Shown here: positions 1-10,381 of the stretch, piece by piece
How positions within the stretch are numbered: the first letter of the stretch is position 1
Layout of the letters: each line of letters starts with the position of its first letter
DNA from: a virus
Taxonomy: Duplodnaviria; Heunggongvirae; Uroviricota; Caudoviricetes
Direction: 5' to 3' (one strand)
Virus record (IMG/VR): IMGVR_UViG_2645727555_000004
Coordinates: 1 to 10,381 of that record
DNA length: 10,381 nucleotides
Made by a program: the position numbers and the translations under genes
The notes under the pieces: model-generated
The model's database searches: none
What the model was told of the DNA's origin: nothing
The model's input: the letters and a program-made list of their open reading frames with translations, nothing else

Positions 1-214
1 ACTGCATATTGAGGTGTTTTTACCGGCACAGGTACCTGATTCGGAGCTCGATCAGTGGATGGAAAGCCGGATTTATCCGGCGATGACTGCGATCCCTGCA
101 CTGGCAGGACTGATTACCACGATGGTTACGCAGGGCTATGAGTATCGTCGTGATGACGATATGGCGTTATGGAGCTCTGCGGATCTGACTTATTCCATTA
201 CATACGAGATGTGA
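1..214 (+). CDS. U: Tail terminator / minor tail protein U, 3' portion only (5' end lies upstream of the window)
   Basis: The reading frame is open from position 2 to TGA at 212-214. The translation (..[26 protein letters not shown]...[10 protein letters not shown]) matches the C-terminus of lambda gpU as I recall it. It sits immediately upstream of V as in lambda. The M at 14 in the ORF track is a GTG inside the frame, not the true start. Confidence 0.85.
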
Positions 215-221
215 GGACGAT

Positions 222-974
222 ATGGCAACACCAAATCCCCTGGCGCCGGTAAAAGGTGCCGGTACCACTCTGTGGGTTTACAACGGCAAGGCTGATGCTT
301 ATGCAAACCCGTTGTCAGACGATGACTGGCAGCGACTGGCTAAGGTGAAGGATCTGACGCCGGGCGAGATGACGGCAGAATCCTACGATGATAACTACCT
401 GGATGATGAAGACGCGGACTGGACCGCGACCGGGCAGGGGCAGAAATCTGCAGGTGATACCAGTTTTACGCTGGCCTGGAAACCGGGAGAGGAAGGCCAG
501 AAAGGGCTTATAGGCTGGTTTGAAAGCGGCGATGTCCGGGCCTATAAAATCCGTTTTCCGAATGGCACGGTGGATGTGTTTCGTGGCTGGGTCAGCAGTA
601 TCGGTAAGGCCGTGACGGCGAAAGAAGTGATCACCCGCACGGTGAAAGTCACTAACGTGGGTAAACCTTCTGTAGCGGAAGAACGCAGCAAAATTACGCC
701 GGTCAGTGCGATTAAGGTGACGCCGACATCCGGTACGGTGGCAAAAGGGAAAACAACCACCCTGACGGTTTCTTTTGAGCCGGAAAGTGCAACCGACAAG
801 ACGTTCAGAGCGGTTTCCGCCGATCCGTCGAAAGCCACCATTAGTGTGAAAGATATGACAATTACGGTAAACGGCGTGGCGACAGGTAAGGTGCAGATCC
901 CTGTGGTGAGCGGAAATGGTCAGTTCGCCGCAGTGGCTGAAGTCACCGTTACTGAAGCGGGCGCTGCAGGGTAA
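222..974 (+). CDS. V: Major tail tube protein V, with C-terminal Ig-like (Big_2-type) domain
   Basis: The 250-aa ORF has an N-terminus ([67 protein letters not shown]) highly similar to lambda gpV. The C-terminal third ([39 protein letters not shown]) resembles the Ig-like decoration domain. A GAGGA Shine-Dalgarno lies at 213-217. Position between U and G fits. Confidence 0.92.
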
Positions 975-987
975 ACGGAGGTAATAC

Positions 988-1410
988 ATGTTTCTGAAAA
1001 CAGAACAATTTGAATATAACGGTGTGTCTGTCACGCTTTCTGAGCTGTCTGCGCTGCAGCGGTTTGATTATATAAAGTTTGTTTCAGACGCAGAACAACA
1101 GGAGACAACGAAGCATGATGTCGTGCACATTAACCAGCGATACCTGGAAACGGCATCCCTGCTTGTGGCGATGTCGCTATGGCATACCCATTCCCTCAAA
1201 GGCACTCTGGCCTCTCCGGAGACAGAGATGCAGCAGATCCGCCGTGAAGTGATGCTGGGATGGCCTGCTGATGCACTGAATCAGGCAACGAACCGGGTGC
1301 TTTATCTTTCAGGTATGCTGGATAACCGGCACGATGCCGATCCTGAACAAACCGGGAAAGCAGAAGCGACTGAGCCGGTAACATCAAAAAAGCATTCGAA
1401 GGCGAGCTGA
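988..1410 (+). CDS. G: Tail assembly chaperone G (zero-frame product)
   Basis: The 140-aa ORF starts MFLKTEQFEYNGVSVTLSELSALQR, matching the lambda gpG N-terminus. A GGAGG Shine-Dalgarno lies at 976-980. It is followed by an overlapping -1 frame ORF, as expected for the G/GT pair. Confidence 0.9.
   Translation: MFLKTEQFEYNGVSVTLSELSALQRFDYIKFVSDAEQQETTKHDVVHINQRYLETASLLVAMSLWHTHSLKGTLASPETEMQQIRREVMLGWPADALNQATNRVLYLSGMLDNRHDADPEQTGKAEATEPVTSKKHSKAS
1386..1392 (+). other. Programmed -1 ribosomal frameshift slippery heptamer A AAA AAG (G to G-T)
   Basis: Seen directly: tc A AAA AAG ca, with the zero-frame codons AAA AAG at 1387-1392 (Lys-Lys in G). After a -1 slip the frame continues as AAA AAA GCA TTC... 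into the T frame. This is the only X XXY YYZ heptamer located between the -1 frame stop (1371-1373) and the G stop (1408-1410). Confidence 0.7.
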
Positions 1411-1850
1411 ACTTTGTCCTGAAACTGGCGCGAGAGATGGGGAGACCCGACTGGCGCGCCATGCTTGCCGGGATGACATCCACCGAATATGCCGACTGGC
1501 GACGTTTTTACTGCACGCATTATTTTCAGGATACCCAACTGGACGCTCATTTTTCCGGGCTGATGTACGCCGTACTCAGCCTGTTTTTTGGCGATCCGGA
1601 TATGCATCCGGCGGATTTCAGTCTGCTTGCTCCAGCGTGTGAGGAAGAGCAGACGGAGATGCCGGACGAGGAAGAAATGCTGATGCAGAAAGCGACAGGA
1701 GTTGCCGGAGGCGTCCGGTTCGGAGGGGACGGAGGGCGCGATATTTCACCTTCTGCGGATGTGGTGGATGTCAGCGAGGATGATGTTGCATTAATGATGG
1801 CTTCAGCGGGGATTTCCGGAGGTGTGAGATATGTCCCAGCCAGCGGGTGA
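1392..1850 (+). CDS. T: T portion of the tail assembly chaperone G-T fusion, made by programmed -1 ribosomal frameshift from G (full product 988..1392 joined to 1392..1850)
   Basis: The -1 frame relative to G is open from 1374 (just after an in-frame TGA at 1371-1373) to the stop at 1848-1850. It has no convincing Shine-Dalgarno of its own. A slippery heptamer A AAA AAG at 1386-1392 is in the correct register in the G frame. The G-then-T arrangement before the tape measure gene is conserved in lambda and most long-tailed phages. Confidence 0.8.
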   Translation, partial: AFEGELNFVLKLAREMGRPDWRAMLAGMTSTEYADWRRFYCTHYFQDTQLDAHFSGLMYAVLSLFFGDPDMHPADFSLLAPACEEEQTEMPDEEEMLMQKATGVAGGVRFGGDGGRDISPSADVVDVSEDDVALMMASAGISGGVRYVPASG

Positions 1851-4443
1851 TCTGGTTATTGATTTGAGTCTGGATGCGGCCCGGTTTGATGAACAGATGG
1901 CCCGGGTACGCCGTCATTTTTCCAGTCTGGAGGCGGATGCCAGAAAAACCGCCAGTACTGTTGAACAGGGGCTGAGCCGACAGGCGCTGGCTGCACAAAA
2001 AGCCGGGATATCAGTCGGACAGTATAAGGCTGCCATGCGCACACTGCCCGCACAGTTCACGGATATTGTCACTCAGCTTGCCGGTGGTCAGAATCCCTTC
2101 CTTATCATGCTGCAGCAGGGGGGGCAGATCAGCGATTCATTCGGTGGACCGCTCAGCCTGCTTACCCTGCTGAAGGAGGAACTTCTCGGGATCAGGGATG
2201 CCTCTGAATCATCAGAGGAGTCGCTGTCAGATACGGCAAATGCACTGGCTGAAAATGCCCGGAATGCCGGTGAGCTGGGACGATTTATGTCGGTGGCCCG
2301 TGTGGCGGCAGGTGGCGGGGTTGCCGTACTGGCCGCGCTTGCTGCCGCCGCCTGGCAGGCAGAGCAGGCTGACCGGGCCTTATTGCGTTCACTGATCCTG
2401 ACCGGAGGGGCGGCTGCCACCACAACGGCAGAATTGTGGAAAATGGCCGGGGTGATCAGCGATGAAGCCGGTGGTGGTATCAGACAGGCGGCAGAAAATC
2501 TGGCCCGTCTGGCAGAAAGCGGGAAATATACCGCCGGGCAGCTACGGATCATGGGGGAAACCTCTCAGAGATGGCTGCAGACGGTGGGGGACGATGCCGG
2601 GAAGGTGGAAAAAGCCTTTGAAGGGATTGCAGCAGATCCGGTGAAGGCGCTGGCCTCCCTGAATCAGCAGTATAACTTCCTGAGCGTTTCCCAGTTACGC
2701 CATATTGATGAGCTTGAGCGCACGAAAGGTAAACAGGCTGCGGTGACGGAGGCGATGTCCCTGTTTGCGGATGTCATGAATGCACGTCTGGAGCAACTTG
2801 ATAAAGCGGCCACGCCGGTGGAAAAAATCTGGGACGATGTTAAAACCTGGACTTCTGACGCATGGGCATGGATAGGTGATCATACACTGGGGGCACTCAG
2901 TCTGATCACTGACGTGGTGGCCGGAACCGTTGAACAGGTGAAGCTGCTGCTTGTGCAGGGGGATCTGGCGCTGGCTGAATTTATTCAGTCAGCCTGGGAA
3001 ACGACAAAGAATGTGCCCGGCGTTGGTGCGTTGTTTGGTGAACTGGCAGAAGAGAACCGCGTATTTATTGAGAAAACAAAACGCGATGAACTGGCGCTGA
3101 GAAAATCCATTGCGGAACGGGATGCGCGTATACGCCAGGGGGAAATGGGGTACATCAACCGCTCGCGTGCAACAGGCGTCAGCAAAGGTCCTGGGCAGCA
3201 GGAAGCCGTCAGCCGTCTGGCTGAAGAGCTGACAGGTAAAAAGCATACATCACCGAAAACGCGCTCTGCCGGGGAGAGGGAAGAGGAGCAGGCAAGAGAG
3301 GCTCTGCTTGCCCTTGAAGCTGAGCTCAGGACGCTGGAAAAACACAGCGGTGCGAATGAGAAAATCAGCCTGCAGCGCCGTGATTTATGGAAGGCGGAAA
3401 GTCAGTATGCGGTCCTGAAAGAGGCTGCCACGAAACGGCAGTTATCTGAGCAGGAAAAATCCCTGCTGGCCCATGAGAAAGAAACGCTGGAGTACAAACG
3501 CCAGCTGGCTGAGCTGGGCGACAAGATTGAACACCAGAAACGGCTGAATGAGCTGGCACAGCAGGCGGCGCGGTTTGAACAGCAGCAGAGCGCGAAGCAG
3601 GCGGCAATCAGCGCAAAAGCCCGCGGACTCACCGACCGTCAGGCGCAGCGGGAGTCGGAAGAGCAGCGCCTTCGTGAGGTGTACGGTGATAATCCGGCTG
3701 CGCTGGCGAAGGCCACATCTGCACTGAAGAACACCTGGTCTGCGGAGGAGCAGCTTCGTGGAAGCTGGATGGCCGGGATGAAGTCCGGCTGGGGCGAGTG
3801 GGCGGAAAGTGCGACGGACAGTTTTTCGCAGGTTAAAAACGCGGCCACGCAGACCTTTGACGGTATTGCACAGAATATGGCAGCGATGCTGACCGGCAGC
3901 GAACAGAACTGGCGTGGTTTCACCCGTTCTGTGCTGTCCATGCTGACAGAGATTTTTCTGAAGCAGGCGATGGTGGGGATAGTCGGGAGTATCGGCAGCG
4001 CCATTGGCGGTGCTTTCGGTGGCGGCGCATCCGCGTCAGGCGGTACAGCCATTCAGGCCGCTGCGGCGAAATTCCATTTTGCAACCGGAGGATTTACGGG
4101 AACCGGCGGCAAATATGAGCCAGCGGGAATTGTTCACCGCGGTGAATTCGTCTTCACGAAGGAGGCAACCAGCCGGATTGGCGTGGGGAATCTCTACCGG
4201 CTGATGCGCGGCTATGCCACCGGCGGTTATGTCGGTACACCGGGCAGCATGGCGGACAGCCGGTCGCAGGCGTCCGGGACGTTTGAGCAGAATAACCATG
4301 TGGTGATTAACAACGACGGCACGAACGGTCAGATAGGGCCACAGGCACTGAAGGCTGTTTATGACGTAGCCCGTAAGGCGGCAATGGATGTTGTGACCGG
4401 GCAGATGCGCGATGGTGGTCTGTTCTCCGGAGGTGGACGATGA
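1831..4443 (+). CDS. H: Tail tape measure protein H
   Basis: The 870-aa ORF has an N-terminus (DLVIDLSLDAARFDEQMARVRRHFS...AAQKAGISVGQYKAAMRTLPAQFTD) and C-terminal ~300 aa (LEAELRTLEKH.GANEKIS.QRRDLWKAES...FHFATGGFTGTGGKYEPAGIVHRGEFVFTKEATSRIGVGNLYRLMRGYATGGYVG...MRDGGLFSGGGR) that match lambda gpH. The middle is Ala/Glu/Gln-rich and helical in character, typical of tape measure proteins. It is the largest ORF, follows G-T, and has a GGAGG Shine-Dalgarno before the ATG. Confidence 0.93.
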   Translation: MSQPAGDLVIDLSLDAARFDEQMARVRRHFSSLEADARKTASTVEQGLSRQALAAQKAGISVGQYKAAMRTLPAQFTDIVTQLAGGQNPFLIMLQQGGQISDSFGGPLSLLTLLKEELLGIRDASESSEESLSDTANALAENARNAGELGRFMSVARVAAGGGVAVLAALAAAAWQAEQADRALLRSLILTGGAAATTTAELWKMAGVISDEAGGGIRQAAENLARLAESGKYTAGQLRIMGETSQRWLQTVGDDAGKVEKAFEGIAADPVKALASLNQQYNFLSVSQLRHIDELERTKGKQAAVTEAMSLFADVMNARLEQLDKAATPVEKIWDDVKTWTSDAWAWIGDHTLGALSLITDVVAGTVEQVKLLLVQGDLALAEFIQSAWETTKNVPGVGALFGELAEENRVFIEKTKRDELALRKSIAERDARIRQGEMGYINRSRATGVSKGPGQQEAVSRLAEELTGKKHTSPKTRSAGEREEEQAREALLALEAELRTLEKHSGANEKISLQRRDLWKAESQYAVLKEAATKRQLSEQEKSLLAHEKETLEYKRQLAELGDKIEHQKRLNELAQQAARFEQQQSAKQAAISAKARGLTDRQAQRESEEQRLREVYGDNPAALAKATSALKNTWSAEEQLRGSWMAGMKSGWGEWAESATDSFSQVKNAATQTFDGIAQNMAAMLTGSEQNWRGFTRSVLSMLTEIFLKQAMVGIVGSIGSAIGGAFGGGASASGGTAIQAAAAKFHFATGGFTGTGGKYEPAGIVHRGEFVFTKEATSRIGVGNLYRLMRGYATGGYVGTPGSMADSRSQASGTFEQNNHVVINNDGTNGQIGPQALKAVYDVARKAAMDVVTGQMRDGGLFSGGGR

Positions 4444-4769
4444 AAACCTTCCGCTGGAAAGTGAAACCCGGTATGGATGTGGCTTCGGCCCCTTCCGTAA
4501 GAAAGGTGCGCTTTGGTGATGGCTATTCCCAGCGAGCGCCTGCCGGGCTGAACACTGACCTGAAAACGTACAGCGTGACGCTTTCTGTTCCCCGTTGGGA
4601 GGCCGCGGCGCTGGAGTCGTTTCTGGCTGAGCACGGGGGCTGGAAGGCCTTTCTGTGGACGCCGCCTTATGGCTACCGGCAGATAAAGGTGACCTGCGCA
4701 AAATGGTCGTCGCGGGTCAGTATGCTGCGTGTTGAGTTCAGCGCAGAGTTTGAACAGGTGGTGAACTGA
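4440..4769 (+). CDS. M: Minor tail protein M (tail tip assembly)
   Basis: The 109-aa ORF (MKTFRWKVKPGMDVAS.PSVRKVRFGDGYSQRAPAGLN..LKTYSVTLSVP...VEFSAEFEQVVN) is near-identical to lambda gpM as I recall it. Its start overlaps the H stop (ATGA at 4440-4443). A GGAGG Shine-Dalgarno lies upstream. Confidence 0.93.
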   Translation: MKTFRWKVKPGMDVASAPSVRKVRFGDGYSQRAPAGLNTDLKTYSVTLSVPRWEAAALESFLAEHGGWKAFLWTPPYGYRQIKVTCAKWSSRVSMLRVEFSAEFEQVVN

Positions 4770-5467
4770 TGCAGGATATCCGACAGGAAACACTGAATGA
4801 ATGCACCCGTACGGAGCAGTCGGCCAGCGTGGTGCTCTGGGAAATCGACCTGACAGAGGTCGGTGGAGAACGTTATTTTTTCTGTAATGAGCAGAACGAA
4901 AAAGGTGAGCCGGTCACCTGGCAGGGGCGGCAGTATCAGCCGTATCCCATTCAGGGGAGTGGTTTTGAACTGAATGGCAAAGGCACCAGTACGCGCCCCA
5001 CGCTGACGGTTTCTAACCTGTACGGTATGGTCACCGGGATGGCGGAAGATCTGCAGAGTCTGGTCGGCGGAACGGTGGTCCGGCGTAAGGTTTACGCCCG
5101 TTTTCTGGATGCGGTGAACTTCGTCAACGGAAACAGTGACGCCGATCCGGAGCAGGAGGTGATCAGCAGCTGGCGCATTGAGCAGTGCAGCGAACTGAGC
5201 GCGGTGAGTGCCTCTTTTGTACTGTCCACGCCGACGGAAACGGATGGCGCTGTTTTTCCGGGACGTATCATGCTGGCCAACACCTGCACCTGGACCTATC
5301 GCGGTGACGAGTGCGGTTATAGCGGTCCGGCTGTCGCGGATGAATATGACCAGCCAACGTCCGATATCACGAAGGATAAATGCAGCAAATGCCTGAGCGG
5401 TTGTAAGTTCCGCAATAACGTCGGCAACTTTGGCGGCTTCCTTTCCATTAACAAACTTTCGCAGTAA
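4769..5467 (+). CDS. L: Minor tail protein L (tail tip, iron-sulfur cluster-binding cysteine motif)
   Basis: The 232-aa ORF (MQDIRQETLNECTR.EQSASVVLWEIDLTEVGGERYFFCNEQNEKGEPVTWQGRQYQPYPIQGSGFELNGKG...) is almost identical to lambda gpL. The C-terminal Cys cluster (C..C..C: CTWTYRGDECGYSG...KDKCSKCLSGCKF) is present. Its start overlaps the M stop (TGATG). Confidence 0.93.
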   Translation: MQDIRQETLNECTRTEQSASVVLWEIDLTEVGGERYFFCNEQNEKGEPVTWQGRQYQPYPIQGSGFELNGKGTSTRPTLTVSNLYGMVTGMAEDLQSLVGGTVVRRKVYARFLDAVNFVNGNSDADPEQEVISSWRIEQCSELSAVSASFVLSTPTETDGAVFPGRIMLANTCTWTYRGDECGYSGPAVADEYDQPTSDITKDKCSKCLSGCKFRNNVGNFGGFLSINKLSQ

Positions 5468-5472
5468 ATCCC

Positions 5473-6216
5473 ATGACACAGACAGAATCAGCGATTCTGG
5501 CGCACGCCCGGCGATGTGCGCCAGCGGAGTCGTGCGGCTTCGTGGTGAGAACACCGGAGGGGGAAAGATATTTCCCCTGCGTGAATATCTCCGGTGAGCC
5601 GGAGGCGTATTTCCGGATGGCTCCGGAGGACTGGCTGCAGGCAGAGATGCAGGGTGAGATTGTGGCGCTGGTCCACAGCCACCCCGGTGGTCTGCCCTGG
5701 CTGAGTGAGGCTGACCGGCGGCTGCAGGTGCAGAGCGATTTGCCGTGGTGGCTGGTCTGCCGGGGGGCGATTCACAAGTTCCGCTGTGTGCCGCATCTCA
5801 CCGGGCGGCGCTTTGAGTACGGGGTGACGGACTGTTACACACTGTTCCGGGATGCTTACCATCTGGCGGGGATTGAGATGCCGGATTTTCATCGCGGGGA
5901 TGACTGGTGGCGTAACGGCCAGAATCTCTATCTTGACAATATGGAGGCTACTGGTTTTTACCGTGTCGCACTGACAGAGGCGCAGCCGGGCGATGTGCTG
6001 CTGTGCTGTTTTGGTTCATCGGTGCCGAATCACGCCGCCATTTACTGCGGCGACGGTGAGCTGCTGCACCATATTCCTGAACAACTGAGCAAACGAGAGA
6101 GGTATACCGACAAATGGCAGCGACGCACACACTCCCTCTGGCGTCACCGGGAATGGCACGCATCTGCCTTTACGGGGATTTGCAACGATTTGGCCGCCGC
6201 ATCGACCTTCGTGTGA
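5473..6216 (+). CDS. K: Tail tip assembly protein K (JAMM/MPN-like plus NlpC/P60-like domains)
   Basis: The 247-aa ORF matches lambda gpK. A JAMM-type motif H-S-H-x7-S-x2-D is present (HSHPGGLPWLSEAD) with an upstream Glu (AESCGF). A candidate NlpC/P60 catalytic Cys (VTDCYTLF) and downstream His residues (PNHAAIY, LLHHIP) are also present. The ORF begins 5 nt after the L stop. Confidence 0.9.
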   Translation: MTQTESAILAHARRCAPAESCGFVVRTPEGERYFPCVNISGEPEAYFRMAPEDWLQAEMQGEIVALVHSHPGGLPWLSEADRRLQVQSDLPWWLVCRGAIHKFRCVPHLTGRRFEYGVTDCYTLFRDAYHLAGIEMPDFHRGDDWWRNGQNLYLDNMEATGFYRVALTEAQPGDVLLCCFGSSVPNHAAIYCGDGELLHHIPEQLSKRERYTDKWQRRTHSLWRHREWHASAFTGICNDLAAASTFV

Positions 6217-6755
6217 AAACGGGGGCTGAAGCCATCCGGGCACTGGCCACACAGCTCCCGGCGTTTCGTCAGAAACTGAGCGATGGCTGGTATCAGGTAC
6301 GGATTGCCGGGCGGGATGCAGGAGAAACCGAATTATCATCCCGTCTTAATGAGCCGCTGGCAAATGGTGCCGTGATCCACATCGTGCCGCGTCTTGCGGG
6401 AGCAAAAAGTGGCGGTGTGTTTCAGGCGGTGCTGGGTGCGGCGTTGATTGCTACGGCAATCTGGATGCCGGGGATCAGTATCGCTTTCAGTGACATTCTC
6501 TTTTCAATGGGTGCGGCAATGACGCTTGGTGGTGTGGCGCAGATGCTGGCACCGAAAGCCAGAACTCCCCGTACACAGACAACGGATAACGGCAAACAGA
6601 ACACCTATTTCTCCTCACTGGATAACATGGTTGCCCAGGGCAATGTCCTGCCTGTTCTGTACGGTGAAATGCGCGTGGGGTCACGTGTGGCATCTCAGGA
6701 GATCAGCACGGCAGATGAAGGGGATGGTGGTCAGGTTGTGGTAATTGGGCGGTAA
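6114..6755 (+). CDS. I: Tail tip assembly protein I
   Basis: The 213-aa ORF has an N-terminus (MAATHTLPLASPGMARICLYGDLQRFGRRIDLRVKTGAEAIRALATQLPAFRQKLSDGWYQVRIAGRD) and C-terminus (APKARTPR.QTTDNGKQNTYFSSLDNMVAQGNVLPVLYGEMRVGSRV.SQEISTADEGDGGQVVVIGR) that match lambda gpI. It overlaps the 3' end of K by 103 nt in a different frame, as in lambda. Confidence 0.88.
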   Translation: MAATHTLPLASPGMARICLYGDLQRFGRRIDLRVKTGAEAIRALATQLPAFRQKLSDGWYQVRIAGRDAGETELSSRLNEPLANGAVIHIVPRLAGAKSGGVFQAVLGAALIATAIWMPGISIAFSDILFSMGAAMTLGGVAQMLAPKARTPRTQTTDNGKQNTYFSSLDNMVAQGNVLPVLYGEMRVGSRVASQEISTADEGDGGQVVVIGR

Positions 6756-6828
6756 TATTATTTTACTCATGTTCTAACTAATTTAATATTTATATCGAAC
6801 ACTGATAATTATTCTATTGGTTAGCTAT
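6756..6828 (+). promoter_or_regulatory. AT-rich upstream region of the moron gene; putative sigma70-type promoter (exact -35/-10 not resolvable by eye)
   Basis: This is a very AT-rich 73-nt stretch (tattattttactcatgttctaactaatttaatatttatatcgaacactgataattattctattggttagctat) immediately 5' of the lipoprotein ORF. It contains several near -10 hexamers (TAATAT at 6784-6789, GATAAT at 6804-6809), but no -35 element could be matched convincingly. Morons typically carry their own promoter. Confidence 0.25.
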
Positions 6829-7167
6829 ATGAACAAAACGATTTTATTCTGCACGATTATTGCCTTAACAGGATGTAAATCTTTGGATTACGTAAAATCC
6901 GGAAAACCTGTAATGGAAGGTAATTCATTAAAAAATATTGATGAATTGTCAGGCTGCATATCCAGACAATGGGCTGGTAATGGAACACCTATAACATCCC
7001 TTCCTATTGAGAATGGGGTAAGCCTTTTAGTTCCACAGGCTATGGGGGGATATGATGTTGTGCTTGATATCAAAAAAGCAGGAAATGGCAGTAGTTTTAC
7101 TCTTTATGAACGTGTACCAGCATTAACGCCAAAAATTTTTGCTGATAGTGTTAATGCATGTAAATAA
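6829..7167 (+). CDS. Small predicted outer-membrane lipoprotein encoded on an AT-rich moron between tail genes I and J; function unknown (candidate superinfection-exclusion or host-envelope factor)
   Basis: The ORF is 112 aa from ATG 6829 (the track's TTG start at 6817 is less likely). The N-terminus MNKTILFCTIIALTGC has a basic n-region, a hydrophobic core and a lipobox LTGC, so it looks like a signal peptidase II substrate. The residue after the lipidated Cys is Lys, not Asp, which implies outer-membrane sorting by the Lol pathway. The mature part has two further Cys residues (SGC, NAC). G+C is visibly far lower than in the flanking tail genes, and the gene is followed by an intrinsic terminator. 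No homolog was recognised from memory. Confidence 0.7.
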   Translation: MNKTILFCTIIALTGCKSLDYVKSGKPVMEGNSLKNIDELSGCISRQWAGNGTPITSLPIENGVSLLVPQAMGGYDVVLDIKKAGNGSSFTLYERVPALTPKIFADSVNACK

Positions 7168-7189
7168 TAGTTAATCCTGTCGTAACTCA

Positions 7190-7220
7190 TGAGCCGCCTT
7201 TTGGGCGGCTTTGTTGTTTA
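7190..7220 (+). terminator. Rho-independent terminator downstream of the moron lipoprotein gene
   Basis: A perfect 7-bp GC-rich inverted repeat AGCCGCC (7192-7198) and GGCGGCT (7204-7210) flanks a TTTTG loop and is followed by the T-rich tract TTGTTGTTT (7211-7219). It sits 25 nt after the lipoprotein stop and just before the J ribosome-binding site. Confidence 0.6.
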
Positions 7221-7233
7221 TGGAGTGTGAGGA

Positions 7234-10200
7234 ATGGGTAAAGGAAGCAGTAAGGGGCATACCCCGCGCGAAGCGAGGGACAACCTGAAGTCCACGCAGC
7301 TGCTGAGTGTGATCGATGCCATCAGCGAAGGGCCGGTTGAAGGTCCGGTGGACGGATTAAAAAGCGTGCTGCTGAACAGTACGCCGGTGCTGGACAGTGA
7401 GGGGAATACCAATATATCCGGTGTCACGGTGGTGTTCCGGGCAGGTGAGCAGGAGCAGACACCGCCGGAGGGATTTGAATCCTCCGGCTCCGAGACGGTG
7501 CTGGGTACGGAAGTGAAATATGACACGCCGATCACCCGGACCATCACGTCGGCAAACATCGACCGTCTGCGCTTTACCTTCGGTGTGCAGGCTCTGGTGG
7601 AAACCACCTCAAAGGGGGACCGGAATCCGTCGGAAGTCCGCCTGCTGGTTCAGATACAACGTAACGGTGGCTGGGTGACGGAAAAAGACATCACCATTAA
7701 AGGCAAAACCACCTCACAGTATCTGGCCTCGGTGGTGGTGGGTAACCTGCCGCCGCGCCCGTTTAATATCCGGATGCGCAGGATGACGCCGGACAGCACC
7801 ACAGACCAGCTGCAGAACAAAACGCTCTGGTCGTCATACACCGAAATCATCGATGTGAAACAGGGCTACCCGAACACGGCACTGGTCGGCGTGCAGGTGG
7901 ACTCGGAGCAGTTCGGTAGCCAGCAGGTGAGCCGTAATTATCATCTGCGCGGGCGTATTCTGCAGGTGCCGTCGAATTATAACCCGCAGACGCGGCAATA
8001 CAGCGGTATCTGGGACGGAACGTTTAAACCGGCATACAGCAACAACATGGCCTGGTGTCTGTGGGATATGCTGACCCATCCACGCTACGGCATGGGGAAA
8101 CGTCTTGGTGCGGCGGATGTGGACAAATGGGCGCTGTATGTCATCGGCCAGTACTGCGACCAGTCGGTGCCGGATGGCTTTGGTGGCACGGAGCCGCGTA
8201 TTACCTGTAATGCGTACCTGACCACGCAGCGCAAGGCGTGGGATGTGCTCAGTGATTTCTGCTCGGCGATGCGCTGTATGCCGGTATGGAACGGGCAGAC
8301 GCTGACGTTTGTGCAGGACCGGCCATCGGATAAGGTGTGGACCTATAACCGCAGTAATGTGGTGATGCCGGATGATGGCGCGCCGTTCCGCTACAGCTTC
8401 AGCGCCCTGAAAGACCGCCATAATGCCGTTGAGGTGAACTGGATTGACCCGAACAACGGCTGGGAGACGGCGACAGAGCTTGTGGAGGATACGCAGGCCA
8501 TTGCCCGTTACGGTCGTAACGTCACGAAGATGGATGCTTTTGGCTGTACCAGCCGGGGGCAGGCACACCGCGCCGGGCTGTGGCTGATTAAAACAGAACT
8601 GCTGGAAACGCAGACCGTGGACTTCAGCGTGGGCGCAGAAGGGCTTCGCCATGTGCCGGGCGATGTCATTGAAATCTGTGATGATGACTATGCCGGTATC
8701 AGCACCGGCGGGCGCGTGCTGGCGGTAAACAGCCAGACCCGGACGCTGACGCTCGACCGTGAAATCACGCTGCCATCCTCCGGCACCACGCTGATAAGCC
8801 TGGTTGACGGACAGGGGAATCCGGTCAGCGTGGAGGTCCAGTCCGTCACCGACGGCGTGAAGGTGAAAGTGAGCCGTGTTCCTGACGGCGTTGCCGAATA
8901 CAGCGTGTGGGGGCTGAAGCTGCCGACGCTGCGCCAGCGCCTGTTCCGCTGCGTGAGTATCCGTGAGAACGATGACGGCACGTATGCCATCACCGCCGTG
9001 CAGCATGTACCGGAAAAAGAAGCCATCGTGGATAACGGGGCGCACTTTGACGGCGACCAGAGCGGCACGGTGAATGGTGTCACGCCGCCAGCGGTGCAGC
9101 ACCTGACTGCCGAAGTCACCGCAGACAGCGGGGAGTATCAGGTACTGGCCCGCTGGGACACGCCGAAGGTGGTGAAGGGCGTGAGCTTCCTGCTTCGCCT
9201 GACCGTGGCAGCGGATGACGGCAGTGAGCGGCTGGTCAGCACGGCCAGGACGACGGAAACCACATACCGCTTCACGCAACTGGCGCTGGGAAACTACAGG
9301 CTGACAGTCCGGGCGGCAAATGCCTGGGGGCAGCAGGGCGATCCGGCATCGGTATCGTTCCGGATTGCCGCACCGGCAGCGCCGTCGCGGATTGAGCTGA
9401 CGCCGGGCTATTTTCAGATAACCGCCACGCCGTATCTTGCCGTTTATGATCCGACGGTACAGTTTGAGTTCTGGTTCTCAGAAAAGCGGATTGCGGATAT
9501 CAGGCAGGTTGAAACCGCAGCCCGCTATCTTGGCTCGGCGCTGTACTGGATAGCTGCCAGTATCAATATCAAACCGGGCCATGATTATTATTTTTATATC
9601 CGCAGTGTGAATACTGTTGGCAAATCGGCATTTGTGGAGGCTGTTGGCCAGCCGAGTGATGATGCATCCGGCTATCTGGATTTTTTCAAAGGAGAGATAG
9701 GGAAAACCCATCTGGCTCAGGAGTTGTGGACGCAGATTGATAACGGTCAGCTTGCGCCTGACCTGGCTGAAATCAGGACGTCCATTACGGATGTCAGCAA
9801 TGAAATCACGCAGACCGTCAATAAAAAACTGGAAGACCAGAGTGCAGCGATCCAGCAGATACAGAAGGTTCAGGTTGATACAAATAATAATCTGAACAGC
9901 ATGTGGGCTGTGAAGCTGCAGCAGATGCAGGACGGACGCCTTTATATTGCGGGTATCGGTGCCGGTATTGAGAATACGCCAGCAGGAATGCAGAGTCAGG
10001 TGCTGCTGGCGGCAGACAGGATTGCGATGATTAATCCTGCGAATGGCAACACAAAGCCGATGTTTGTTGGTCAGGGTGATCAGATATTCATGAACGACGT
10101 GTTCCTGAAACGCCTGACGGCCCCCACCATTACCAGCGGCGGTAATCCTCCGGCATTTTCCCTGACACCGGACGGGCGGCTGACGGCGAAAAATGCCGAT

Positions 10201-10381
10201 ATCAGCGGTAACGTGAATGCGAACTCCGGGACGCTCAACAACGTCACGATTAACGAGAACTGTCGGGTTCTGGGAAAACTGTCCGCGAACCAGATTGAAG
10301 GCGATATTGTCAAAACGGTCAGCAAGTCTTTCCCCCGCACGAGCACTTATGCCAGTGGCACCATCACGGTAAGAATCAGTG
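7234..10381 (+). CDS. J: Tail tip / central tail fiber host specificity protein J, 5' ~1049 codons (3' end beyond window)
   Basis: ATG at 7234 is preceded by GGAG at 7222-7225. The frame is open to the window end; it is absent from the ORF track only because no stop falls inside the window. The translation begins [54 protein letters not shown] and stays lambda gpJ-like throughout (e.g. ..[55 protein letters not shown]). All minus-strand ORFs across 7218-9279 are antisense to it. Confidence 0.93.

Follow-up and report, generated by a model that had tools for sequence, protein, structure and literature searches.

What is the AT-rich DNA that separates genes I and J in an otherwise lambda-like tail operon, and what does it encode? 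The question is raised by a window of 10,381 nucleotides (nt), positions 1 to 10,381 of the IMG/VR record IMGVR_UViG_2645727555_000004 (Caudoviricetes), in which 478 nt lie between the stop of I (6755) and the start of J (7234), versus 60 nt in lambda-type phages. Positions given below are those of the window unless a locus number precedes them. An earlier note had proposed that this junction carries a moron, in the usage of Hendrix and colleagues, consisting of one small gene with its own promoter and its own strong intrinsic terminator. We propose that the I-J segment of this lambda-like E. coli prophage is a horizontally acquired accessory cassette (a moron as Hendrix and Juhala defined it) whose single gene encodes a lipoprotein precursor, named LPP here, and we infer that LPP is most likely an envelope-acting lipoprotein of superinfection exclusion or lysogenic conversion, a reading in which our confidence is about even.

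The composition of the junction bears out the claim of an AT-rich segment. Positions 6756-7189 contain 33.6% GC versus a mean of 57.0% (sd 3.4, minimum 47.2) for the remaining 434-nt windows (z = -6.8), and the 434-nt window with the lowest GC content overall begins at 6742. The GC content at third codon positions is 0.24 for the open reading frame (ORF) at 6829-7167 versus 0.52-0.69 for V, G, H, M, L, K, I and J. The left edge is as abrupt as had been stated, the GC content in 50-nt windows falling from 0.54 to 0.20 directly past the stop codon of I. The right edge, which the earlier note had put near 7222, needs correction. The AT-rich DNA ends at about 7185-7190, and alignment revealed that 7191-7233, comprising a hairpin, a T-run and the Shine-Dalgarno sequence of J (GGAG, 7222-7225, + strand, conserved in lambda-type phages), is homologous to the ordinary lambda I-J spacer. 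This puts the end of the foreign DNA near 7190 and shortens the insert, relative to the earlier note, by about 45 nt on the right. The actual insert, defined by its GC content and its absence from lambda-type phages, thus occupies 6756-7190 (about 420-435 nt, + strand) and takes the place of about 19 nt of the spacer found in lambda-type phages.

The insert is bracketed by two copies of a 7-nt direct repeat, ACTCATG, on the + strand at 6765-6771 and 7185-7191, the right copy abutting the hairpin. These are the only two copies in the 10.4-kb window, and their spacing of 420 nt approximates the net size of the insert. An illegitimate insertion or deletion at microhomology could account for them; statistical support for this is weak. 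Since ten repeat families of 7-19 nt were found within 800 nt, and 7-mer repeats are common by chance, the pair alone is not significant.

That this DNA is extra relative to lambda, as had been supposed, was confirmed on a large scale in E. coli. A lambda-type I-J junction is present in 4351 of 5426 complete genomes (8782 places), and the insert is found in 334 genomes; the gene is absent from lambda itself and from about 96% of the lambda-type I-J junctions of this species. All sampled empty junctions with both flanks aligned were shorter by about 418 nt. Gene I shares 92-97% identity with lambda-type phages as far as its stop codon. The carriers include extraintestinal pathogenic E. coli (ExPEC) of the ST95 type (UTI89, APEC O1, S88, IHE3034 and NU14) and O104:H4 outbreak strains. 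Megablast of the insert DNA against 50,697 phage records gave no match.

A single real ORF, co-oriented with the tail operon, is present in the insert, as the earlier note had indicated. It runs from ATG at 6829 to TAA at 7167 on the + strand and encodes 112 amino acids (aa). Its DNA shows 100% identity to the UTI89 gene whose product, WP_001332187.1, is annotated as a 'hypothetical protein'. LPP begins with MNKTILFCTIIALTGC followed by KSLD, which fits the lipobox rule [LVI][ASTVI][GAS]C without Asp at position +2 and thereby predicts lipidation. The signal peptide and the lipobox L-T-G-C are encoded by 6829-6876 (+ strand), with Cys16 as the predicted lipidated residue and Lys at +2; the mature form would comprise 97 aa with a pI of about 7.9. 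LPP is thus strongly predicted to be exported by Sec as a precursor, lipidated at Cys16, and sorted by Lol to the outer membrane as a periplasm-facing mature lipoprotein with a Cys43-Cys111 disulfide. The alternative that the ORF is a conserved structural tail gene was considered and is contradicted by this Sec/Lsp lipoprotein signal, as well as by the rarity of the gene at lambda-type junctions.

Profile comparison assigned LPP to PHROG 914, a family of unknown function (E = 7.3e-33; residues 1-112 against profile positions 1-118 of 118), and the same profile (phrog_914) was matched by all 47 aligned family members. In the 47-sequence alignment C16, C43 and C111 are invariant, and P27, W48 and G63 nearly so. 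Of 129 family representatives, 122 have a lipobox, and Asp at +2 occurs in none of the 129, so that the E. coli Lol sorting rule predicts outer-membrane localization. A word-indexed search recovered about 20 close clusters, from E. coli, Jejubacter, Kluyvera, Klebsiella and Enterobacter; an exhaustive profile search raised this to 125 representative clusters, nearly all of 105-125 aa, spanning the Enterobacterales, Pseudomonas and the Xanthomonadales. The AlphaFold2 model of LPP is a compact alpha+beta domain (pLDDT 83.7, pTM 0.76). Most of the 13 E. coli alleles show mainly synonymous differences, typically 4-6 synonymous against 0-2 non-synonymous changes, and two differ by a single non-synonymous change. 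Together with the frameshifted copies seen in 3 of about 60 E. coli viral contigs, this indicates a gene that is real and under purifying selection yet dispensable. No Pfam family matched LPP at E values up to 1, there was no NCBIfam match, and sequence searches of the PDB gave no identification. Nor did literature searches on phrog_914, WP_001332187 and lipoprotein, moron and tail themes find a description of the PHROG 914 family. The cargo family is consequently uncharacterized yet already catalogued among phage lipoproteins.

Relatives of the LPP gene at tail-operon slots are always co-oriented with the tail genes and occupy three junctions: I-J in E. coli (58 viral contigs); K-I in Klebsiella, Kluyvera, Hafnia, Yersinia, Serratia phage OS31, phages Fraca and LMessi, and one metagenomic contig; and T-H, between the tail chaperone and tape measure genes, in Enterobacter. 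The GC content of the gene is below that of the flanking DNA in all phage contexts. In each of them a GC-rich hairpin with a T-run comes after the gene, immediately ahead of the Shine-Dalgarno sequence and the ATG with which the next tail gene starts. Distant members outside phage contexts were located on the chromosomes of Shimwellia and Dyella, where their GC content is like that of the host, and one further distant member lies on a small replicon-like contig. The occurrence of homologues at three tail junctions, and in non-tail contexts besides, fits mobile moron cargo.

Two of the non-tail contexts lie beside repressor genes. In a high-GC prophage (L091:2732-3795) the gene for a distant member, P0092, overlaps the stop codon of a CI-like repressor gene (helix-turn-helix and S24-peptidase domains), which is opposite and divergent from a cro-like gene, giving a repressor-lipoprotein operon; tblastn of P0092 against phage genomes gave no match. 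In Pseudomonas phage phiAH14a the PHROG 914 member is gp33, in the early-left arm downstream of the CI repressor gene (L098:5028-5948, gp33-gp32). The adjoining gp32 is an extra copy of the phage's own gene I, 79% identical and near-identical in its C-terminal region. The tail operon of the same phage (L101:18239-19310, gp83-gp84) carries an unrelated 140-aa lipoprotein gene, gp83, just upstream of the genuine I, so that phiAH14a possesses two pairs of lipoprotein and gene I. The CI-linked members hint, indirectly, at expression from the repressed prophage and at a role in lysogeny or exclusion.

Several kb of cargo fill the K-I junction of Jejubacter-like and Yersinia prophages, forming an island there (L072:4064-8910; L086:1267-6402; L087:1709-6402; L073:7238-8388). 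These islands hold a set of genes resembling P22 immI (Arc/Mnt-like, Bro-N and KilA-N/ANT) plus an XRE repressor, and in the first of them a second, unrelated lipoprotein gene (149 aa, phrog_3152) is found between the PHROG 914 gene and I. The slot just upstream of I is therefore occupied in other phages by unrelated lipoproteins, namely phiAH14a gp83 and this 149-aa protein, the kind of allelic diversity that is typical of exclusion loci. The I-J junction is likewise a recurrent cargo slot in other siphophages, with an HNH endonuclease gene in mEp021 (L096:45958-46524), a 93-aa ORF (L013:1158-1439), a 220-aa ORF on the minus strand in Yersinia (L086:7071-7733), and two small ORFs in phiAH14a (L101:19348-19755).

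The evidence for independent expression is mixed. The leader of the gene (6756-6828, 73 nt, + strand) contains 20.5% GC and, by sequence scan, weak promoter-like matches and a weak Shine-Dalgarno sequence. On the + strand ahead of the ORF, no σ70 match reached 9/12. There are four matches at 8/12, as expected in DNA of 20% GC; among the weak promoter-like sequences, all on the + strand and 8/12 at best, are TTTACT-N16-TAATAT (6762-6789), TTTAAT-N16-GATAAT (6782-6809) and TTAATA-N18-AATTAT (6783-6812). An AT-rich imperfect inverted repeat, AATATTATTTTA / TAATTTAATATT, with 12-nt arms and a 13-nt gap, lies just past the stop codon of I (6754-6790); it could be an operator, an H-NS-type site or compositional noise. 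An Rfam scan of 6500-7500 returned just a sub-threshold match to GcvB (19.6 bits, the gathering score being 42); we attribute this match to chance.

Downstream of the gene, scanning, folding and alignment identified a terminator-like hairpin with an interrupted T-run (7191-7221, + strand). The hairpin itself (7191-7211), GAGCCGCC-TTTT-GGGCGGCTT, has a 9-bp stem with six G-C pairs and is followed by TGTTGTTTAT; the spacer folds at -23.3 kcal/mol (z = -2.2). Alignment with PhiR49_1_star and Lambda_2E9 revealed that it is homologous to AAACCGCC-TCCG-GGCGGTTT in empty lambda-type I-J spacers. The hairpin of the window is thus most probably resident or backbone DNA and cannot be counted as cargo. 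In a search for an empty site with the window-type hairpin, the top 25 E. coli matches all bore the insert. As to the organization that the earlier note had called a moron, the extra DNA, the deviant composition and the single gene stand, and for this copy neither a promoter nor a terminator of its own could be established.

The other slots are more informative in this respect. At K-I and T-H the LPP-family gene is always accompanied by its own canonical terminator, and since the empty K-I and T-H junctions have no room for a hairpin, the terminator there belongs to the cassette. By the classical argument, a terminator carried by the cassette would point to transcription also by polymerase that is not antiterminated. 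At K-I a spacing of just 32-40 nt between K and the gene, together with a good Shine-Dalgarno sequence, suggests that it is co-transcribed with the other genes of the late operon. Late read-through expression would in principle be certain, and expression in the lysogen is plausible. In the Enterobacter T-H copy (L009:5960-6000) the leader contains CCTCC-N8-GGAGG directly before the ATG; folded as a hairpin, this element would mask the Shine-Dalgarno sequence and could allow translation to be regulated. The empty lambda-type 60-nt I-J spacers (L003:943-1002, L004:973-1032) also carry a terminator-like hairpin and T-run inside an operon. Their arrangement of a GC stem of 7-8 bp, a tetraloop, a T-run, TTTATGGAG, 7-8 nt and ATG resembles the 3' end of the K-I cassettes, for example that of Fraca. 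The hairpin of the empty spacers may be an orphan terminator from an ancestral moron.

Several known phage systems invite comparison. HK97 gene 15, in the T-H slot, is the founding moron, and its product has chromosomal homologues, the YebO family (Juhala et al. 2000; Cumby et al. 2012; reviewed in PMC3594210). Like LPP, gp15 is specified by a single small envelope-protein gene of deviant GC content, co-oriented between two tail-operon genes; its slot is that of the Enterobacter LPP-family members, and both families have chromosomal homologues. It excludes phages without blocking a receptor, which would match a receptor-independent action of LPP. In contrast to LPP, gp15 is an inner-membrane, YebO-like protein with no sequence relation to it, and prophage expression and exclusion have been demonstrated for gp15. 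Experiments have also shown that small lipoproteins from the structural gene cluster of J-bearing siphophages exclude phages: Lpp021 and Lpp010 of the mEpimmI group, temperate siphophages that carry J, confer exclusion when expressed from a plasmid (PMC11893012). That exclusion tracks the type of receptor used by the phage. Lpp021 is a Cys-rich protein of 72 aa encoded downstream of J on the opposite strand, and has no evident similarity to LPP, the two not having been formally aligned; tblastn with LPP did not find the mEp021 genome.

Cor of phages phi80, N15 and T1 (PHROG 1119), a moron-type exclusion factor, resembles LPP in being a small outer-membrane lipoprotein from the tail-gene region, in its case that of lambdoid and T1-like siphophages. 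It differs in size (about 77 versus 112 aa), in being encoded downstream rather than upstream of J, and in its specificity for FhuA. An identification of LPP with Cor was rejected, as hhalign covered only 30 columns of signal peptide and lipobox, and LPP matches phrog_914, not phrog_1119. The T5 protein Llp (PDB accession number 8a60, 'lytic conversion lipoprotein') is a small disulfide-containing lipoprotein in the inner leaflet of the outer membrane that acts from the periplasmic side on an outer-membrane protein; LPP is predicted to be alike in location and disulfide. The two were not equated either: the PDB profile search aligned only residues 1-20, the signal peptide (E = 0.97), and Llp was not among the fold matches. 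Lambda Bor / Iss is, like LPP, a prophage-encoded outer-membrane lipoprotein of about 100 aa, and is a classic lysogenic-conversion moron. The bor gene lies beside the lysis genes, whereas that for LPP is in the tail operon; there was no match to Pfam Lambda_Bor, the only PHROG match being phrog_914, and a Bor/Iss assignment was likewise dropped. The structural neighbours of LPP are Francisella Flpp3 / DUF3568 and the N-terminal helix-grip domain of BamC, at 6-10% identity and in a generic fold class; no sequence-level match to LPP was found for these, and neither has a transferable known mechanism.

We envisage that the LPP gene would be transcribed as part of Q-antiterminated late read-through of the tail operon, with possible low-level transcription in the lysogen from a weak AT-rich promoter, and that the downstream hairpin would stop transcripts that are not antiterminated before J. 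From the periplasmic side of the outer membrane LPP would bind an envelope component, or the incoming tail-tip / DNA-channel apparatus, and would not mask the receptor used by the neighbouring J. Superinfection exclusion below the receptor step is, on indirect grounds, our leading hypothesis because members of the family lie in phage immunity regions, because varied lipoprotein genes occur upstream of I, and because gp15 and the mEpimmI lipoproteins provide precedents; a role in host fitness like that of Bor is its main rival. A bolder form of the hypothesis is that PHROG 914 constitutes an unrecognized class of exclusion lipoproteins that catch the ejected tail-tip or DNA-channel proteins of lambda-like siphophages instead of masking a surface receptor. 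This we regard as unlikely. Were injection blocked in this manner, candidate targets would be the tape measure protein or the hydrophobic C-terminal part of gpI, the latter because the LPP gene adjoins I in most phage contexts and is co-duplicated with I in phiAH14a. Several results weigh against our proposal. The leader lacks a σ70 site above 8/12, frameshifted copies are in circulation, no PADLOC-DB model of a defence protein matched LPP at E values up to 1, and the chromosomal homologues could reflect a housekeeping role in the envelope that is unrelated to phage.

The hypothesis considered originally was a blocker of the Llp/Cor type, which would bind the receptor of the phage's own J from the periplasmic side and so bar superinfection by phages of the same type and spare progeny from loss on cell debris. 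A small outer-membrane lipoprotein encoded beside tail-tip genes, as are cor, llp and the mEpimmI lipoprotein genes, would suit this role, and the late-operon position would have it made just before lysis. This hypothesis was downgraded after the alleles of J had been analyzed, using the last 150 residues of J in comparison with the UTI89 J protein. A cassette of 99-100% identity occurs with at least four C-terminal alleles of J, whose similarity to UTI89 J is at least 93%, about 60%, about 42% or below detection. Conversely, of the more than 50 phage records with a UTI89-type J C-terminus, none contains the insert; vB_EcoS-640R1, for example, combines an empty junction with a J C-terminus that is 98% identical. 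Phage Fraca carries an LPP-family gene plus cor. Together these observations make a cognate receptor blocker unlikely, and, in contrast to llp, which is genetically coupled to the gene for its receptor-binding protein, the LPP gene is uncoupled from the receptor-binding allele of J. Moreover, the segment of J for the receptor-binding domain begins only 3.3 kb downstream of the LPP gene, a distance over which recombination separates the two, and no similarity to Cor, Llp or Lpp021 is evident beyond the signal peptide. On balance we consider cognate blocking improbable.

A lipoprotein of host fitness or virulence, which in the manner of Bor/Iss conversion alters serum resistance, adhesion or tolerance of envelope stress and not phage sensitivity, is somewhat unlikely. 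It would agree with the carriage of the insert by ST95-type ExPEC and O104:H4 outbreak strains, with the existence of chromosomal homologues outside phage contexts, and with the best structural match, the Francisella virulence lipoprotein Flpp3. That fold match is weak, however (Foldseek E = 5e-3, 6-9% identity), LPP lacks homology to Bor or Iss, clonal inheritance of one prophage can explain the strain distribution, and the family is found overwhelmingly in phage tail and immunity modules, across genera of non-pathogens. LPP might instead be the product of a late-operon gene for virion release or tail function. Such a gene, with no independent expression, would not be a moron but an optional part of the tail module, tied to I. 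The close spacing after K, the good Shine-Dalgarno sequence and a distance to I of about 60 nt in many phages speak for this, as do the failure to find a promoter, the adjacency to I in most phage contexts (the exceptions being T-H in Enterobacter and the CI-linked copy of L091) and the phiAH14a member, which travels with its 79%-identical copy of gene I. We find it improbable all the same, since an exported lipoprotein cannot enter tails, which assemble in the cytoplasm; lambda and the great majority of E. coli junctions do without the gene; copies exist behind a CI repressor gene and on chromosomes; and the intrinsic terminator that always follows would be purposeless for a purely late, antiterminated gene. 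That the ORF is a decaying or functionless hitch-hiker, retained because the prophage is young, seems very improbable. Frameshifted or truncated copies do exist (P0002, P0007, P0018, L069, L070 and L071), and the same tail backbone is also found without the insert, but decay is hard to reconcile with invariant Cys residues and conserved motifs across 125 representative clusters from Enterobacterales, Pseudomonas and Xanthomonadales, with a confident fold prediction, and with E. coli alleles that differ mostly at synonymous sites.

The remainder of the window is collinear with the lambda tail operon. Using the ORF list and tblastn against the annotated UTI89 prophage, we identified V, G, T, H, M, L, K, I and J. 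Gene I (6180-6755, + strand, stop codon TAA at 6753-6755) contains a Lambda_tail_I domain (Pfam, E = 9.5e-20) and is annotated in UTI89 as 'tail assembly protein'. Of the tail tip / host-specificity gene J the 5' part is present (7234-10381, + strand), the gene running off the window; it was assigned from the UTI89 annotation and a tblastn identity of 89-100%. Comparison of 988-4443 with L001:14264-17689 revealed a mosaic relation to the UTI89 prophage. Protein identity with that prophage is 92-100% for V, M, L, K, I and the insert, and 48% for G, 84% for T and 41% for part of H. Among complete E. coli genomes there was no match to the whole window above about 96% identity. The best whole-window match, in E. 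coli TUM3755 (NZ_CP135680.1, 2792540-2804124), is longer than the window by about 1.2 kb; its tail region contains a protein annotated as 'phage antirepressor N-terminal domain', which is another tail-operon insertion.

Tail-operon morons serve temperate phages as a store of genes that alter how the host behaves, and about 6% of complete E. coli genomes carry this one. If LPP is a receptor-independent exclusion factor, it would represent a new mechanism among prophage-encoded defences and would bear on the choice of therapeutic phages against ExPEC and Klebsiella. Should PHROG 914 proteins catch ejected phage proteins, they would be a Gram-negative, outer-membrane counterpart of the injection block by Ltp and gp15, acting on groups of phages whatever their receptor. 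If LPP is a conversion factor, it would be a candidate envelope determinant in pathogenic lineages.

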